Virus genome (UHGV): UHGV-0017034
Length of the DNA: 20,747 bases
Strand: one strand, 5' to 3'
Source of the DNA: a virus
Every line of letters begins with the position of its first letter. Position 1 is the stretch's first letter. The notes below the pieces were generated by a model. The model ran no database searches and was not told where the DNA came from. It worked only from the letters and a program-made list of their open reading frames with translations. The translations under genes and the position numbers were made by a program. Positions 11,078 through 20,747 of this stretch are shown piece after piece.

Positions 11078-12982
11078 TTAGAACGATGTTATCCAGCTAC
11101 GGCCTCTATTTGGACGTCTGACGATGTTTTGACGTTGTGGTCGTGTGATTGGCTTAGTTTCTTCTATTTGCTCGTTAGATTGCGATTTAGGAGCTTTTAC
11201 GGGTTCTTCGACAACACGGTTTAAGCTGTCTTTCATTGCAATGAGTTTATCCCATGACATTTTTGAAAGAACGTAGCGAGAAGCCGCTGTAGCATACACT
11301 GCGCAGTCGAGCGCCTCGTTCCTAACGCCTGGGTTCTTTACCCATCTCACGCCAGTAGTAGTACGCTTGACAGATTCACTTAAAAGCTGATCGAGATAAT
11401 CATCAGGAACGGTTCCTGATATTTCTAAGCTAATGTGAGGATTGTCTTTCAGGTTTCTAACCAACATTTCACGAAATGCAGTTTTACCCACGTTAACACC
11501 CAACATAAGCAATTCATGACCACCTGTGCGGGTAGGTTTAACCGGAATGATCGGAGCGTTACCAGCAGAACTACCTTTGATAGCGTGTAAGTTCTTCCAC
11601 TTGCCGCAAATACGGTATCCAGCTTGAGTGAATCGACCGTTCGATGTATCAAGGAAGCTGGCGAGCATAGGAACACGATCACCCGATACAGTAGTAAATT
11701 TGGTTTTATGGAAGTTGATTAATCTATCCCATACAGGGGATTCATATCGTTCACAGTTATGATCGTAAAAGCTGCGATGATCCAGAATATAAATCTTATC
11801 CTTTGCCACGCCCATGATTGTAGTTTCTGCGCGATCTAATTGCTGGTCAGTACCCGCACACAAGAAAATCACGTCATCAGGGATATTCTCGATAGAAACA
11901 TCTGTTTTTAGTTGTTCCAGTTCATTTGCTTCTACTGCCGTGTCCTGATCGTCGTATACCTTGCCTAACACGGTGTTATAAAATGATTGTAAATCAAAGG
12001 ATTGCCACGCATGACTAAAATCAACCACACAAGCGCGGATCGTGCTGAAAGGTGAATACAGACGGCTGATCCAGAATCCTGCTACCTCACTTTCACGGGT
12101 TGCTCTCCACTCTCCTTGTGCCACCGCCCTGATCCGCTCTCCTTCTGTCCATGCGTTCTTACAGTGGGGGCAAATATAACGAGCGGTATCAGGATCGGGT
12201 AAGTTCTTACCATCAATGTTACGCCATTCAAACTGTACGTTTTCCCACTCGATCACCTGGTGTCTACCGCAATGAGGACACGGAACAAAAAACATACGCA
12301 TATCGCTTGATAACCATTGCTGGTTAATGCTTCCGAGCTTACTGGTCGGGGTACTGGATACGACTAATCGGCCTTCATCGCCAAAGGTAGTTAAACGGTT
12401 AGCAGCCAGTGCCACCGGATCACCTTCTTCTGAGGCTGTAGCAGCATCGATTTCGTCAAGCAGTCCGACCTTTGCTGTCTTACCGCGTAGGGTTGATGGA
12501 CTAGTAAGCGATACCATATAAAGGAAGTGGTTTGATTTGAGCTGGAGCTGATTGTTGTTATTAACAGAATTGCGATCATTCTTGTCTGTAACCACGTCTT
12601 TTAATGCATCACATGCTTCGATAGACGGTCGGATCTTACCCGCGAGATATTGAGACATTTCTTTAGCGGTTGATTGTCCGATAATCATATTGCATGGATC
12701 GTTAGCCATCTGGTTAAATAGGATGCCGTTCAAGATGGTAGTCTTTCCGATCTGCGCACTGGTCATCAGAACATACTTTTTCTTGTTCTCAAGGAAAGGA
12801 GCATCAATCATACCTTTCTGGAATGACAGCAATTTAACTTTATCCCCAGCTTGAGGACCATCTACCAGCACCATATTCGCTTCGCACCATTCAGAAGGAA
12901 GGAGCTTAGGCGGTGGCGTAATATATTTGGCTGCATTTTTGAGAATCTTTTTTAATTTGGCCTTATTTGAAATCAGTTTCAT
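11078..12982 (-). CDS. terL: Terminase large subunit, lambda GpA family (634 aa)
   Basis: Walker A-like [10 protein letters not shown]; motifs matching lambda gpA as recalled ([11 protein letters not shown] vs LTAGIDSQLDR; [11 protein letters not shown] vs RRNEALDCFVYA; CPHCG...YICPHC zinc-finger-like pairs); GAGGGT RBS. Confidence 0.9.
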
Positions 12983-15434: not shown

Positions 15435-15893
15435 TTACAGCATATCTAAGCCTTCATCGTAACCGTAGAAGCCACCGTGAGAAGAGAAAGCGATTGGTGC
15501 GTAGTCTTCGTCTTCCTCATCTTCTTCATCTTGTTCTGGGGCTTCCTGAGCGGTTTCTTTGCCGTAATCAGCCATAATCTGGTCAAGATCGGCGATCCCA
15601 TAGTAAGAGCCTAAATCAACGTCATATTCACGGACTTGAAACGGCAGATCATCACGAACAATAATTGCTGGAATATCGTTGTATTGAAGACGACCTTCAT
15701 CAGTAAAACAGTCGATGATCACAGTAGGACGACCATTTCGTTTTAAAGCGTAGAAAGCAGTTGAGTAGTTGGAGTCTTCGGAATGACGAATGATGTTATA
15801 ACCACGATTAGCGAAAACTTCTAGCATATGGAAGTTGCCATAGTTTTCAGAGTCCAGACCCAGAAGTACGAAAGGAGTTTTAGTATTGATCAT
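15435..15893 (-). CDS. Hypothetical protein (152 aa) with a strongly acidic C-terminal tail
   Basis: ORF with GAGGA RBS; C-terminus EAPEQDEEDEEDEDYAPIAFSSHGGFYGYDEGLDML; no recognisable family. Confidence 0.6.
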   Translation of the reverse strand: MINTKTPFVLLGLDSENYGNFHMLEVFANRGYNIIRHSEDSNYSTAFYALKRNGRPTVIIDCFTDEGRLQYNDIPAIIVRDDLPFQVREYDVDLGSYYGIADLDQIMADYGKETAQEAPEQDEEDEEDEDYAPIAFSSHGGFYGYDEGLDML

Positions 15894-16085
15894 AGTGGAA
15901 ATCCTCTAAAAGAAAGTGAATCAAGTAAGTTCACTATTATTTATAACGAGAATTTTTTATCTATTTGGAAGTGATTGGATTCAGTCGGGCTAAAGCCCTC
16001 CTTCATATATTTGATTAAATCATCATCAAAACGAAGAAGTATCTTTAGAATATAAGAATCTTTCTTTTGGAGAAATTATAATCAG

Positions 16086-16350
16086 GAAGCAATTTAGCAA
16101 CCGAAGGTTGCAATCCCGAAGGGATACCAATACCTTTCTAGAAAGTGATTGTTACTCACTTCGTTCGTTTACTAGAATCAGTTAGTAACTAGTATTAAAT
16201 CCCTTTCTAAGAAAATCCTTTCAAAAGCGAGTGAACGCCGTAGGCGTGAACGTGAGCGAAGCGAACTATCCAATCCCTTTCGAATCCTGCTTGCAGGTCT
16301 TAGAAGGTGTTGATGGGCGCTTCGCGCACGGCTACGCCGTATTCTTTTTG
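16086..16350 (+). ncRNA. Candidate structured noncoding RNA (hairpin-dense, ORF-free, ends at a terminator)
   Basis: Hairpins GCAACC-GAA-GGTTGC (16097-16111), ATCCC-GAA-GGGAT (16113-16125), palindrome CTTTCTAGAAAG (16134-16145), AGTGA/TCACT, ACGCC-GTA-GGCGT, CCTGC-TT-GCAGG; stops in all frames; weak TATAAT at ~16074; 5' end uncertain. Confidence 0.3.
16317..16350 (+). terminator. Rho-independent terminator (plus strand) with tandem hairpins
   Basis: GCGC-UUC-GCGC then ACGGC-UAC-GCCGU followed by AUUCUUUUUG; no protein-coding gene upstream on this strand. Confidence 0.6.
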
Positions 16351-16471
16351 CGAGATCTTTCTTGAACGTAGTGAGAGAAAACGAGCAAAAAGGAGAACGT
16401 TAGTTCGAATTTTATATTCTATGGTCTGTGGGGTGAAATGTCTTTCAAGATCATACACTTATGAGATTGAA

Positions 16472-16593
16472 GTGTAGGGTTAGTGTAGGTGTGTAGGTTT
16501 CATAGTGTAGGTTTGAGGGTGTTATAGTGTAGGTTTACTGACTAGTGTAGTGTAGGCCAATCCCTTTAAAGCGTAGGTTTGTAGTGTAGGTTT
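16472..16593. repeat. Iteron array: about 9 copies of GTGTAGG(TTT)
   Basis: Copies start at 16472, 16483, 16491, 16505, 16527, 16550, 16584, with a variant GCGTAGGTTT at 16571 and a half-site at 16545; spacing often 11 or 22-23 bp; flanked by an AT-rich tract (16594-16700). Confidence 0.7.
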
Positions 16594-16698
16594 TTCATCA
16601 AAAATTTTGATAGAAAATTCTTGTATATTATTTAACCGGAAAATCACCAAAAATCGCTGTAAATGCATGATTTAAAAAGAATTATCAAAAGGTCGCCG

Positions 16699-16707
16699 TG
16701 CTATAAT
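16699..16707 (+). promoter_or_regulatory. Extended -10 promoter element TGCTATAAT
   Basis: TG-n-TATAAT perfect match; -35 weak. Confidence 0.35.
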
Positions 16708-16787
16708 AGGTTATAAAGGTTGATAATCGTTATCCGCCATTTTCACACAAAAATTTTGATAGTCATTTCTCGCTTAGGTCAAGTGCA

Positions 16788-16816
16788 TTGACAACTGTCA
16801 AGGATTATTTTATACT
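16788..16816 (+). promoter_or_regulatory. Sigma70 consensus promoter TTGACA-17-TATACT with overlapping palindrome TTGACA-AC-TGTCAA
   Basis: -35 at 16788-16793, -10 at 16811-16816, exact 17-bp spacer; GTCAAGTGC 9-mer at 16778-16786 shared with the 15358 region. Confidence 0.6.
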
Positions 16817-17158
16817 TTTTCTCATTGGTAGGGGTTGAAATTTTCGAAACAATCCCCATATTGATGATAAACAAGATTTTTTCGTGTATAAATACATGCA
16901 TGAAATGATTGTTCACTTCTGAAAATCCCCTGATTCACTGTTAACACACACAGCACTGGTTAAACACACAGTGCCTTTTCGATTGAATAATGTACGAATT
17001 GATTAATTATTAATCTTCTCTTTAGCAATTCGTGCTCCCGCTGATCAGATATACAGTGGTTTTGCAGGGTTTTCTGAAATGACTTTTATAAATAGAAGTA
17101 TCGAGGGCGAAAAGCTCTTTTTATTGTCCTTATTAATCCACATTTGAGGAATCTACTT

Positions 17159-17338
17159 ATGGCTAGACCTGTTAAGTTTACTCGTGAAATGATTGTTGAT
17201 ATTGCTAAACGCTTTTATGGCGATACTGAACGAGGCGGCGAGAATTTCTTTAAGAAGGAAGGAATTGATAGAAGCGGATTCTATAAGCTAATGAAGAAAT
17301 ACGAAATTCAGATAAAGATTAACGTTCAAGTTTGTTAA
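17159..17338 (+). CDS. Small HTH protein (59 aa), paralog of the 13705-13932 product
   Basis: GAGGAA RBS 9 nt upstream of ATG 17159 (the track ORF begins at a TTG at 17144); MARPVKFTREMIVDIAKRFY...GIDRSGFYKLMKKYEIQ parallels the other paralog. Confidence 0.55.
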   Translation: MARPVKFTREMIVDIAKRFYGDTERGGENFFKKEGIDRSGFYKLMKKYEIQIKINVQVC

Positions 17339-17379
17339 TCCACTTTCACTGAGAATTATACGATGGCTTTAAAAATAAA

Positions 17380-17409
17380 AAGCCTCCCTTGTTGCAGCAA
17401 AGGAGGCTT
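17380..17409. promoter_or_regulatory. Long hairpin between the small HTH gene and the 333-aa gene; terminator-like only in minus orientation
   Basis: AAGCCUCC...GGAGGCUU with inner UUGC/GCAA pairing; plus-strand A-run upstream gives a U-tract only on the minus strand. Confidence 0.4.
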
Positions 17410-17454
17410 GAAATGAACAATTAAAACTAACACAGCATTCAGGAGTATTTATAA

Positions 17455-18456
17455 ATGAAAAATTCTAAGCGCATCACCTTCAACCTGTTTATTAAATCCA
17501 ACGGCAAACTGAACATTACCGTCATGGAAGGTAAAGCAAGCAAACAAGACAAATCCTTTGAAGTAGTATCCGGTAAGACTCTGACCGAAATGCGTCAGAA
17601 TGCTGGCATCAAAGACGGTGCTGAATGGCAGATCACTAACCGTTTCGACAAACGTCACGTTAAACCTACACTGGTAGAAGGTGAATCCGTTTATTGCTTC
17701 GCTCGTGCTGTTAAAGCCGATGAAACTTACTATCTCGCTGTTGTTAAAACTGCTTCCGGCTTCCGTGCTGTAATGCATCACAAGAGCAAGCGTAACGAAT
17801 ACGGCGTAGAGACCCAGGAAGTCGCAAAACGCTTCCGTACTGTTGCTACCGAATCCACTGTAAAGGATGTTTCTGGTACTGTTAACACCGTTAAAGGCGG
17901 TTCCTTCTACAACCACGCATTACAGGTTACTTCCTCCTTCTTCTGCAAAAAAGAAGCACAGAAAGAAGTTGCTCCGGTAGTAGTTGAAGAAGTTAAAGAA
18001 GAAGTTGCAGTGGTTGAATCTTCCGAAGTTGAAGCACTGAAAGCACGCATTGCTGAACTGGAAGCTGAAAACGCATCTCTGAAAGCTGAACTGGCAGCAC
18101 AGGAAACCACTTTCGAAGTAGCAGCGGTTGAAGTTGAAGCAGTTGAAGAAAAATCCATTGATGAAGAACTGGAAGAACTCCTTAACTATCGCTGGGGTAA
18201 CGGTGAAAAAGTAGAACAGGAAGAACAGAAAGAAGCTGATCCGGTAGTAGTTCCGGTTGAAGAAAAATCCGCACCTGTTACTAACTTTGAATCCCTGCGC
18301 AATAACTTTATGGCTAAATTCAAAACCACTTGGGAAGATACCGAAGAAGAACAAGAAGAGATTGAAGTAAACGAAGACGAGATCCGCGAAGCACAGATGG
18401 CACTGCATGACGCTATCTACGACACCAACTACAGCGCCTACGCATACGCAGCTTAA
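17455..18456 (+). CDS. Hypothetical abundant protein (333 aa): N-terminal globular domain plus acidic Glu/Val/Ala-rich coiled coil
   Basis: AGGAG RBS; codon usage visibly different from neighbours (CGT, CTG, GGT, TCC, ACC, GAA, AAA, TTC, TAC preferred), typical of highly expressed E. coli-type genes; leucine-zipper-like EALKARIAELEAENASLKAELAA. Confidence 0.8.
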   Translation: MKNSKRITFNLFIKSNGKLNITVMEGKASKQDKSFEVVSGKTLTEMRQNAGIKDGAEWQITNRFDKRHVKPTLVEGESVYCFARAVKADETYYLAVVKTASGFRAVMHHKSKRNEYGVETQEVAKRFRTVATESTVKDVSGTVNTVKGGSFYNHALQVTSSFFCKKEAQKEVAPVVVEEVKEEVAVVESSEVEALKARIAELEAENASLKAELAAQETTFEVAAVEVEAVEEKSIDEELEELLNYRWGNGEKVEQEEQKEADPVVVPVEEKSAPVTNFESLRNNFMAKFKTTWEDTEEEQEEIEVNEDEIREAQMALHDAIYDTNYSAYAYAA

Positions 18457-18471
18457 TAGAGGGGTGAATCT

Positions 18472-18714
18472 ATGATGAATCAAAACAAAGAATTTCTGGG
18501 TAATCTGATGTTAGAAATTACCAAAATGAAAGAAAGAATGGTAGCGATGGAATCAGAGATTAAAACACTTAAAGCTGATAATAAGGCGTTGAGAAAGTCC
18601 TTAAAGCTGATTGATGAGACTAATGCGGTTATGATGGATCATGTATTCCCTGAGTGGCGAAATGAAACTAAACCTACACAACATAAGAAACTTACACTTC
18701 GAATTGTTGCATAA
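18472..18714 (+). CDS. Small coiled-coil protein (80 aa)
   Basis: GAGGGG RBS; heptad-like MKERMVAMESEIKTLKADNKALRKSLKLI; starts 16 nt after the upstream stop. Confidence 0.55.
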   Translation: MMNQNKEFLGNLMLEITKMKERMVAMESEIKTLKADNKALRKSLKLIDETNAVMMDHVFPEWRNETKPTQHKKLTLRIVA

Positions 18715-18736
18715 AAAAAAGGACTCCGAAGAGTCC
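18713..18736 (-). terminator. Bidirectional-type terminator hairpin (U8 tract on the minus strand)
   Basis: GGACUC-CGAA/UUCG-GAGUCC perfect 6-bp stem; plus-strand A8 at 18713-18720 gives U8 after the stem on the minus strand; also lies immediately 3' of the plus-strand 80-aa gene. Confidence 0.65.
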
Positions 18737-18812
18737 CTAGTAAGTTTAGGTTAGGTTTGCACAACAAAGATGAGGTTATAATGAACATAATGCTACATTA
18801 TTCTTTAAAGCC

Positions 18813-18838
18813 AGAAAAATAACCGCCCCGAAGGGCGG
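18813..18838 (-). terminator. Rho-independent terminator (minus strand) ending the small-terminase transcript
   Basis: Minus-strand RNA CCGCCC-UUCG-GGGCGG followed by UUAUUUUUCU. Confidence 0.65.
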
Positions 18839-19000
18839 GAGGATTAATACTCAATCTATACTTGTTATGTTTTTATGTTGTATAGATCCTGACTATGAAA
18901 ACACTGTACTGGAAGTGTGTTTTTATGGCTTTTAATCGGGAATCCTCAAAGAAGATCCCCTGTTAATAACCATAAGGAGAAAAGGCAGATTACACTATTA

Positions 19001-19171
19001 TTTAGTATCCTTTTTACAGCAACTAAAAAGAATAAACAAAAAGAAGCATACCCAGCCGTAAGGCGTACCGATTAGAAATTTGAAAAACACCACCAGCGAT
19101 ATAAAAATCAATTTAATGCCAGCGACGATAGTCAAAAACAGCAGAGTAGCAAAGTAGACAAAAAGATCCAT
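19001..19171 (-). CDS. Small hydrophobic membrane protein (56 aa, about two TM segments), below the ORF-track cutoff
   Basis: AAGAGG RBS 7 nt upstream of ATG; hand translation MDLFVYFATLLFLTIVAGIKLIFISLVVFFKFLIGTPYGWVCFFLFILFSCCKKDTK. Confidence 0.5.
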
Positions 19172-19224
19172 AGATAATCCTCTTTGAAAACGACCATCAT
19201 CTATAGTTCAATTCATCGATTTAA

Positions 19225-19326
19225 TTAATGATACTTGAAAGCGTTACACAAAGTAGAAATGCCAATATGTGCCAGTGAATATACGATAGTTAATCCTACA
19301 GCCAGATAAATCAAAAATTCAACCAT
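19225..19326 (-). CDS. Possible 33-aa hydrophobic peptide
   Basis: GAGGA about 9 nt upstream; hand translation MVEFLIYLAVGLTIVYSLAHIGISTLCNAFKYH; very short, weakly supported. Confidence 0.3.
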   Translation of the reverse strand: MVEFLIYLAVGLTIVYSLAHIGISTLCNAFKYH

Positions 19327-19356
19327 AGGTAAATCCTCAAATAAGAAAAAGGTTAG

Positions 19357-19375
19357 CGGGGGATGTTCTCCCCCG
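19357..19375 (-). promoter_or_regulatory. Hairpin downstream of the small terminase gene
   Basis: CGGGGGA-N5-UCCCCCG perfect 7-bp stem; U-rich tract begins about 6 nt after the stem on the minus strand. Confidence 0.35.
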
Positions 19376-19426
19376 TAGACGTTGACCAGCTCAACATCCT
19401 TCACGTATATATTTAGTATCTAATTT

Positions 19427-19978
19427 TTAAGACACATCAAATTCATCGTCTTCTTCTGGTTCTTGTTCCGGTTCATCCATTAATGGTAATTCTTCTTCCT
19501 CGTCTTCTCCCAAATCTGCATTTTCGAACAAGTCCCCTACTTCATTTAAACGACGCTCGATAATCTCTCTTAGCTTATTCTTCAATGTTTTCTGGTCATT
19601 GGCAGATTCGAGAATTTCTAGGGCATCGATTGTGGCGATCTGCAAAATAGTCTGCTTCACTTTCCCGCAATATTCCGCTAGCTCCTGCTCCACATACCCG
19701 ACGGGAATCAGGAGATTCATCGCTTCCTGGTTCTCTCGTTCGGCTGCATCTGCTAATGCTCTCTCACGGCGTAATTTCTCTACGTCGATTTGTTCCTTGA
19801 CAGTAGTTTCTTTAAGCGGGTTGATGATATTTTTCAAGACCCATTCTGTTCCTTCTTTGGCTGGCACGCGGCGGGTATTGGTATTAAATGGCATTCCTCG
19901 TTCTTGCCATTTCTTAGCGGCGTTAATTGTATAGCCGTATAAACGGGAAATTTCTGTAAGGGTTAATTCTTCTTTCAT
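19427..19978 (-). CDS. terS: Terminase small subunit, lambda Nu1-like (183 aa from the RBS-supported start)
   Basis: LTLTEISRLYGYTINAAKKWQERGMPF parallels the lambda Nu1 N-terminal HTH (IFGASIRTIQNWQEQGMPV as recalled); acidic C-terminal tail; GGAGGA sits 8 nt upstream of Met-6 (19978), while the first ATG at 19993 has no SD. Confidence 0.65.
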   Translation of the reverse strand: MKEELTLTEISRLYGYTINAAKKWQERGMPFNTNTRRVPAKEGTEWVLKNIINPLKETTVKEQIDVEKLRRERALADAAERENQEAMNLLIPVGYVEQELAEYCGKVKQTILQIATIDALEILESANDQKTLKNKLREIIERRLNEVGDLFENADLGEDEEEELPLMDEPEQEPEEDDEFDVS

Positions 19979-20089
19979 CCGGTTATCCTCCATTAAATTT
20001 GCGTAAAATTATTTATCTGATCTGCGCATTCAGGAGAGCGCCTAAAACGCTTTATAACGAAGGGAAAGATCGAGGCATGGAAAGGGATT

Positions 20090-20140
20090 GGCGGGTGTTA
20101 ATAGTCGCGTAGCGACCGCGCTGGTGGGCTGCACTGCACC
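20090..20140. other. Candidate cos / packaging-initiation site
   Basis: GC-rich island in AT-rich DNA about 120 bp upstream of the Nu1-like gene, containing the perfect palindrome GTCGC-GTA-GCGAC (20104-20116); GGAAAGGGA-like repeats lie between it and the gene. Confidence 0.25.
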
Positions 20141-20217
20141 TGTTTTGAAATCTCACACGTACATCAAAAACCGGGGTGCCGAAAACTCCCTTTATTTCAT
20201 CCGTGGAACAGTACCTT

Positions 20218-20246
20218 TTGATTTGGTCAAGTCTTTTTTATAAATA
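20218..20246 (+). promoter_or_regulatory. Possible promoter for the 20278 gene (TTGATT, short spacer, TATAAA/ATAAAT)
   Basis: -35-like TTGATT at 20218-20223 and -10-like TATAAA at 20239-20244; spacer is 15-16 nt, so weak. Confidence 0.3.
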
Positions 20247-20277: not shown

Positions 20278-20583
20278 ATGAAGACTAAAGATATTAAGAT
20301 TGAATTTGAAACTGTTGATGACGTTCGGGAACATCGCATTGATTCTACTGGCTGCATCTTCCAGCTTACTAACTCCCCTATTGGATTGATTATCTATGTA
20401 GCAGAAGATGACGTGTACGCTATATGGGATGGACAGGATGAGTTTAAAGGCGGGAATAGCCATCTGATCAATACTCATGAGGGATTTGATCCGACTCCTG
20501 TCTGTATGCTTGCTTATCACGTAACACTGGATGAACTACCGGAAGCAAGCGCGCGTATCCGTAGAATGAAAGACATTAAGTGA
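20278..20583 (+). CDS. Hypothetical protein (101 aa)
   Basis: GAGGG RBS 5 nt upstream of ATG; followed 20 nt later by a strong terminator; divergent from terS. Confidence 0.6.
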   Translation: MKTKDIKIEFETVDDVREHRIDSTGCIFQLTNSPIGLIIYVAEDDVYAIWDGQDEFKGGNSHLINTHEGFDPTPVCMLAYHVTLDELPEASARIRRMKDIK

Positions 20584-20602: not shown

Positions 20603-20633
20603 AGCCCTGTCCTTGTGATGGGGCTTTTTTATT
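20603..20633 (+). terminator. Rho-independent terminator (plus strand)
   Basis: AGCCCUGUC-CUUGU-GAUGGGGCU (9-bp stem with two G-U) followed by UUUUUUAUU. Confidence 0.7.
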
Positions 20634-20649
20634 GGAAAATCGGGTGTTA

Positions 20650-20747
<98 letters not shown>

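Follow-up and report, generated by a model that had tools for sequence, protein, structure and literature searches.

A candidate packaging recognition site inherited together with the DNA-binding half of the small terminase in a family of E. coli and Salmonella prophages

The window analyzed here is the whole 20,747-nucleotide stretch of virus genome UHGV-0017034. Comparison of 35 sequences of related prophages of E. coli and Salmonella, in which the window represents type A, revealed one exchangeable cassette, made up of the non-coding DNA between about position 20150 and terS and of the N-terminal, DNA-binding half of TerS, which are passed on as a unit. The conservation of the region, the boundaries of the cassette, the co-variation of the site with the TerS recognition helix and the independence of both from the large terminase (TerL) are seen directly in the alignments. 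On balance, we think it probable that the segment at about 20055-20150, which takes in a perfect palindrome and two purine-rich repeats, is a cosB-like or pac-like packaging site recognized by the winged helix-turn-helix (wHTH) of TerS, and that the palindrome is not the nicking site. The element is of an ordinary kind, a terminase recognition site, in an uncharacterized prophage family and with a pattern of modular specificity. The features on which this reading draws are as follows.

11078-12982, minus strand: terL, GpA-type large terminase (Pfam GpA_ATPase 2e-56, GpA_nuclease 4e-45)
19427-19978, minus strand: terS, likely a Nu1-type small terminase of 183 aa (phrog_57, E 7e-16)
19997-20031, minus strand: inverted repeat TGCG(C/T)A ... 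TTACGCA around an AT-rich spacer, close to the Shine-Dalgarno sequence GGAGGA (19986-19991) on its upstream side
20055-20071, minus strand: conserved island GATCTTTCCCTTCGTTA, invariant in types A and B except in L224
20059-20069: purine-rich repeat 1, GAAGGGAAAGA, within the island 20055-20071
20072-20096, minus strand: terminase-proximal variable patch, a candidate R-type TerS site with site-helix co-variation
20079-20091: purine-rich repeat 2, GGAAAGGGATTGG, within the patch 20072-20096
20097-20120, minus strand: 24-nt core CGCGGTCGCTACGCGACTATTAAC, which encloses the palindrome and is the same in all type A and type B sequences
20104-20116, no strand: palindrome GTCGCGTAGCGAC (GTCGC-GTA-GCGAC) with perfect arms, C-GTA-G on the plus strand
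20121-20141, minus strand: distal variable patch AGGTGCAGTGCAGCCCACCAG with the tandem pentamers GTGCA GTGCA, differing among cassette types
20142-20160, minus strand: left cassette junction around TTTCAAAAC (20142-20150), where L217 and L218 switch, placed also by sliding identity
20161-20237, minus strand: upstream block common to all cassette types, holding AAAGACTTGAC at 20225-20236
20640-20675, no strand: prophage-chromosome junction (att), core about GGGTTGACTACGTTCGG at 20657-20673, with ycdX beyond
16270-16281 (minus), 16557-16568 (minus), 16127-16138 (minus), 15486-15497 (plus) and 20080-20091 (plus): GAAAGGGATTGG sites

The region upstream of terS sits between divergent genes, and alignments of up to 35 relatives divide it into three zones, namely the upstream block, a typed middle zone and the inverted repeat by the ribosome-binding site. 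The middle zone (about 20030-20150) exists as discrete types, with two conserved islands amid diverged sequence: 20097-20120, found in types A and B and in Salmonella, and 20055-20071, found in types A and B only and different in Salmonella and type C. Salmonella sequences keep the first 16-17 nt of the 24-nt core, and group-specific DNA borders the core on either side. Seen from the minus strand, the purine repeats are two pyrimidine-rich direct repeats, 18 nt apart. The distal patch is not tightly tied to helix type, since it is variable inside type B. In the upstream block, positions 20165-20193 comprise a G-rich/T-tract/C-rich segment and, after it, a T run, and AAAAAGACTTGAC is invariant across relatives whose compared TerL proteins are 58-99% identical to that of the window; AAAGACTTGAC has no second copy elsewhere in the window. 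This block is a possible promoter, or a possible place for a shared cosN/cosQ. Next to the gene, no relative departs from TTACGCA or GAGGAT, and the inverted repeat is a possible operator or promoter of terS. The IHF consensus WATCAANNNNTTR is absent from 19994-20240, between site and gene. RNA elements were also considered and set aside: Rfam gave no match, the RNAalifold consensus was weak (-10.3 kcal/mol, with a covariation term of -0.49), and an RNA hairpin/T-run in the window folded worse than shuffled sequence.

Across the 35 sequences, CCCTTTCC occurred only with the TerS helix (I/L)NAAKKW, CCCTTACC only with LNGG(A/G)KRW and CGCCTTATC only with LPAVTKW, and these site variants lie under purine repeat 2. 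The TerS proteins of types A and B are 94% identical, and of their 12 differences, 7 lie within the predicted recognition helix (residues 17-29); their DNA has diverged in two places, at the non-coding site and over codons 13-26, and is 92-100% identical in between. Recombination at this scale happens, since the codons that follow the helix (QERGMPF or LERGLPY) pair with both site types. In a cosB, R sequences match the recognition helix; here there are two repeats 18 nt apart, and the perfect association of site variants with helix variants (0 exceptions, n=35) is confounded by close linkage; much of it could come from linkage alone because the site and the helix codons are only 100-200 nt apart. 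The suggestion in the first-pass annotation that the purine-rich repeats could be cosB-like binding sites for the small terminase gains support from this co-variation of the DNA under the second repeat with the recognition helix, and both repeats are predicted TerS sites.

The type C cassette, which spans about 20155 to terS codon ~80, separates the palindrome from TerL. It brings a different site and a different N-terminal half of TerS, followed by a C-terminal half that is window-like or identical. All seven of its carriers (L051, L217, L218 and L220-L223) lack the palindrome, and type C reads CCAGCACACTCCACAACGAGC at that position. In L217 and L218 the sequence changes at about 20160, from window-like on the upstream side to type C beyond it, and the cassette is seen at both integration sites. 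In the three carriers that were compared, TerL is 99% (L051), 92% (L217) and 58% (L218) identical to that of the window. Because a cassette without the palindrome pairs with TerL proteins this close, the region looks like a cosB and the palindrome is unlikely to be cosN, an element that is constant among phages with the same TerL, which the palindrome is not. Judged by its distribution, the palindrome appears to behave like part of a TerS-linked module, not like a TerL-linked cosN. The proposal that it is cosN, made when the sequence was first annotated, is not borne out, given its absence from L051 and L217 and its lack of similarity to the lambda cosN.

The palindrome itself was correctly described. 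The GC-rich island and the perfect palindrome at 20104-20116 both exist, the latter within the most GC-rich 40-60 nt of the window: the island is the GC maximum of the 20.7 kb at window sizes of 40, 50 and 60 nt, with 70% GC over the 40 nt from 20103 compared with 41.7% for the whole window (top 0.01% of windows). The estimate of ~120 bp upstream of terS also holds, the measured distance being 125 nt from the ATG at 19978 of this minus-strand gene. On the plus strand the loop is a GNA triloop with a C-G closing pair. Palindromes of the 5-3-5 form are at chance level in the window (28 observed, 22.9 +/- 4.9 expected), and those with GC-rich arms number three (at 16235, 16328 and 20104), all GTA/TAC-centered, with 0.02 expected. 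The palindrome is no chance observation. It is present in 28 of the 35 relatives (types A and B and Salmonella) and missing from the seven of type C. A single-stranded DNA fold of the palindrome region showed no excess stability over shuffled sequence (z about 0). A scan of metagenomes with a 16-mer found nothing beyond chance matches in GC-rich DNA. One unrelated environmental contig (L071, Ga0208544_10020145) has the 13-nt palindrome GTCGCTACGCGAC three times within 180 nt (1172-1346) with other hairpins interspersed, copies that are probably a repetitive palindromic element of another organism, and several other metagenome contigs have inverted pairs of the searched 16-mer.

The assignment of the gene at 19978-19427 as a terminase is likely. 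Its true start is the ATG at 19978 and not that at 19993, since a 1-nt indel in relatives (group B) throws the upstream ATG out of frame; the distance from palindrome to gene follows from this start. RefSeq annotates a product of 183 aa, and GGAGGA at 19986-19991 is the ribosome-binding site. The phrog_57 family ('terminase small subunit') matches over residues 2-173, the full length, at E 7e-16. BLASTP against lambda Nu1 aligns residues 4-30 only, at 33% identity, through the WQExGMP helix-turn-helix motif, and the Pfam Phage_Nu1 model stays under the cut-off for TerS (E 0.016). In an AF2 model (pLDDT 78), helices at 7-13 and 18-26 and a strand at 37-39 come first, residues 40-152 form long helices, and the acidic tail is disordered, which lays the protein out as a wHTH (residues 1 to ~83), then a coiled-coil and the acidic tail. 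This resembles the Nu1-type build of a wHTH, a coiled-coil self-assembly region and a C-terminal TerL-binding tail, the contact with TerL being presumed here. Foldseek against the PDB gave as best match 1J9I, the DNA-binding domain of lambda gpNu1, next the phage-packaging entries 7LW0 and 6HN7, and further excisionases and MerR/BldC proteins, all with weak E-values (0.1-0.4). Taken together, the full-length family match and the modeled fold make the Nu1-like label given to this gene in the first-pass annotation a plausible one. The gene heads its own transcription unit, closed by strong terminators at 18838-18823 and 18738-18719. Two tiny hydrophobic ORFs (18998-19404, minus strand) follow terS in this unit and are odd company for a terminase gene.

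terL belongs to another transcription unit than terS and lies 6.4 kb further downstream; the gap between the genes (19427 to 12982) holds a 1.5 kb non-coding region as well as terminators and genes on the opposite strand, so the lambda-type order of Nu1 and A, with terL directly after terS, is not found here. No cos candidate was found beside terL, where the DNA is AT-rich, with neither a GC-rich island nor a conserved candidate. Among cultured phages the closest TerL is 45% identical (record DCP80). The TerL of L218 (E. coli ETEC1739, 17938-19842) is nearly identical to that of the window in the first 14 and last ~45 residues and only 58% identical overall, which indicates that TerL is itself mosaic; the conserved termini may contact TerS or the portal. 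The C-terminal half of TerS stays conserved alongside the N- and C-termini of TerL even where the TerL core is 58% identical, a joint conservation that would fit a contact between TerS and TerL.

The window is the right end of a prophage of ~36 kb (~36.5 kb) that splits ycdX in strain PEC41; the final ~100 nt of the window match this gene, which had a hit in 5396 of 5426 complete E. coli genomes. Sister prophages (group B) lie in hicB with the similar core CCGAA(C/T)GTAGTCAACCC. A large serine recombinase is encoded at one end of the prophage and terS at the other, and the packaging and head genes are all on the minus strand (terS, terL, a lambda-family portal, a protease-capsid fusion and a 1174-aa tail fibre). 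A literature search on ycdX or hicB prophages found nothing relevant. The 247-nt intergenic stretch ahead of terS was found in 61 of the 5426 complete E. coli genomes, one copy per prophage; 60 of the 61 records leave it unannotated, and terS follows it at all loci examined. There was no PLSDB match that would place it on plasmids, and no satellite bearing only the site among the 5426 genomes. Roughly 1% of complete E. coli genomes carry the family, which also occurs in Salmonella.

Several other genes in the window are worth recording. Between att and the terS control region, a 101-aa ORF (20278-20583, plus strand) that some relatives lack (e.g. L048) includes 102 nt with 73.5% identity to a hypothetical gene that JSE and other T4-like phages carry, and it ends in a terminator at 20603-20625. 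At 663-1569 on the minus strand, just downstream of the 1174-aa tail-fibre gene, are three tandem paralogous ORFs of 98-101 aa with an FDIPNGW/Y motif.

Ends of packaged DNA were sought in 17 Logan, ENA or NCBI contigs carrying terS of this family and in IMG/VR contigs. Logan contig L002 starts at 20146, near the left cassette junction, and is the sole contig to start inside the region; of the other 16, 12 read through the whole region and four start at least 80 nt upstream of 20146. None of the contigs inspected ends at the palindrome. The IMG/VR ends were gene-boundary cuts of predicted proviruses or were scattered in the non-coding region near 16 kb. There were no related cultured phages with mapped ends, the nearest relative being the first ~29 kb of DCP80. 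Since physical DNA ends were not found in the assemblies, cos-type packaging of this prophage is something we infer. The lambda cosN sequence GGGCGGCGACCT has no match in the region upstream of terS. A look-alike elsewhere, GCACGGCGACCT at 16690-16701 on the minus strand, agrees with that cohesive end at 10 of 12 positions and was taken as chance because it is variable or absent in relatives.

DCP80 (L001/L226, GenBank PQ671644.1, Escherichia phage), a 141 kb 'complete genome', looks chimeric: its first ~29 kb are similar to the prophages described here (TerL 45%, capsid 45% and a TerS-like protein 32% identical), and the remainder has genes of T4 type, among them motA and two oppositely oriented rIIA copies. 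In the distant relative in this record, with its 32% identical TerS, a palindromic GC-rich island stands out from AT-rich surroundings about 200 nt ahead of terS.

The other non-coding region of note, 15894-17454, is ~1.5 kb without an ORF over 64 aa, is conserved in position in relatives, and has the appearance of an iteron-type replication origin. Its elements are about nine ACCTACACTA iterons at 16468-16594, which differ in relatives, two UUCG-loop hairpins at about 16095-16125 on the minus strand, and a long imperfect inverted repeat (16243-16263 / 16318-16338) that bears GC-rich hairpins, their GTA/GAA loops lying on opposite strands, and includes the other two GTA palindromes. The DNA fold of this inverted-repeat region is stable (z = -3.5), and in relatives the hairpins change in sequence and keep their pairing and GNA-type loops. 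The window contains 10 matches to GAAAGGGATTGG with at most two mismatches, compared with 1.8 expected, clustered at 15.9-17.4 kb. At two places, 16.3 kb and the region upstream of terS, the motif adjoins a GC-rich GTA palindrome, with opposite orientations at the two. Because type C keeps the hairpins without the palindrome upstream of terS, the resemblance was not taken as evidence of a common function.

Four other explanations were weighed. That TerL makes staggered nicks in or around GTCGC-GTA-GCGAC, with the purine repeats toward terS as cosB, would explain why the GC maximum of the window has two-fold symmetry and a fitting position relative to a Nu1-type terS; moreover, the palindrome is invariant over types A, B and Salmonella and has variable flanks, which alone is the pattern of the lambda/21 cosN. 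This explanation is nevertheless improbable in view of type C, where CCAGCACACTCCACAACGAGC takes the place of the palindrome beside TerL proteins 99% and 92% identical to that of the window, and of the missing similarity to the lambda cosN and of contig ends that fall elsewhere than at the palindrome. Headful (pac) packaging or terminal repeats, with TerS binding here and no fixed cohesive ends, agrees with the favored reading on TerS binding and differs in the type of end only. Flanking TerS sites around a central element are known in pac phages such as SPP1, and no ends were found computationally, but TerL belongs to the GpA family, whose large terminases are characteristic of phages with 5' cohesive ends, and we regard this variant as rather unlikely.

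The region might instead be one of transcriptional control, in which the wHTH protein, as a terminase subunit or a pure regulator, binds operators of its own operon and packaging starts elsewhere. Divergent genes flank the region, it has an invariant TTGAC block, the conserved inverted repeat TGCGYA...TTACGCA abuts the ribosome-binding site, and terS heads its own terminator-closed unit and has a predicted fold shared with MerR, BldC and Xis; the commonness of this modeled wHTH among excisionases and MerR/BldC regulators would count against a packaging role. On the other hand, no sigma-70 consensus promoter was found for terS, the full-length match is to a family of terminase small subunits, and the conservation of the TerS C-terminal half and the TerL termini despite a TerL core of 58% identity fits a contact between the two proteins. 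We consider a pure control region unlikely, though regulation and packaging are not mutually exclusive. A replication hairpin, for example a single-strand initiation signal grouped with the GNA-loop hairpins at 16.2-16.6 kb, is suggested by the centering of all three GC-rich 5-3-5 palindromes on GTA/TAC (0.02 expected), by GAAAGGGATTGG adjoining the palindrome at both loci and by the pairing that the 16.3 kb hairpins keep through sequence changes in relatives. It is highly improbable: type C keeps those hairpins and has no palindrome upstream of terS, the motifs at the two places do not co-vary in relatives, and the local fold is at the level of shuffled sequence. Another protein or process may still read these elements, since GAAAGGGATTGG and the GC-rich GTA palindromes recur in the 16.1-16.6 kb non-coding region. 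It is tempting, if doubtful, to speculate that the swappable cassettes of site and TerS domain (at least four types), with palindromes and GAAAGGGATTGG in common with a putative iteron origin 3.8 kb away, reflect one factor or DNA structure linking replication and packaging.

If, as we favor, the region is a recognition site for TerS, the N-terminal wHTH would bind at about 20055-20150, and the site and the first ~80 terS codons would form an exchangeable specificity cassette. Bound TerS would then position the GpA-type TerL for a cut nearby, so that packaging would start here with ends that are presumably cohesive. By analogy with known systems, the cut site would be expected in the block common to all cassettes, just upstream, at about 20145-20200. 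The palindrome would be specific to the cassette, and its simplest role would be that of an architectural site or of one bound by a TerS dimer. Confirmation would define the packaging signal and the specificity determinants of a prophage family without a cultured phage, and the case is a caution that the most eye-catching palindrome need not be the cut site.

The pac site of SPP1 is arranged as pacL-pacC-pacR, with TerS binding sites flanking a central element. The present region is similar in having variable patches, presumably bound by TerS, on either side of a conserved central element; SPP1 differs in its terminase family and in headful packaging, and here the distal patch does not track helix type. 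The closer parallel is lambda, with which this prophage shares a Nu1-type TerS with an N-terminal wHTH, a GpA-type TerL and recognition DNA directly upstream of terS. The R sequences of lambda are pyrimidine-rich repeats of the TTTCC type, which the pyrimidine-rich repeats here resemble. Unlike in lambda, terS and terL are 6.4 kb apart, the IHF consensus is absent, there is no cosN similarity, a 13-nt perfect palindrome lies inside the variable cassette, and the site is only 0.2-0.55 kb from attP. Between lambda and phage 21, cosQ and cosN are identical, and cosB and the TerS N-terminus with its recognition helix differ (PMC4669245); in the same way, site and recognition helix change together in these prophages and TerL does not. 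N15 has a simple cosB that is short, contains few R-type sites and does not require an IHF site (PMC4669245), features that recur here, although there is no sequence similarity and N15 has adjoining terS and terL genes and the cosN of lambda. If confirmed, the cassettes described here would be a second natural example, after lambda/21/N15, of the joint exchange of a TerS DNA-binding domain and its site.
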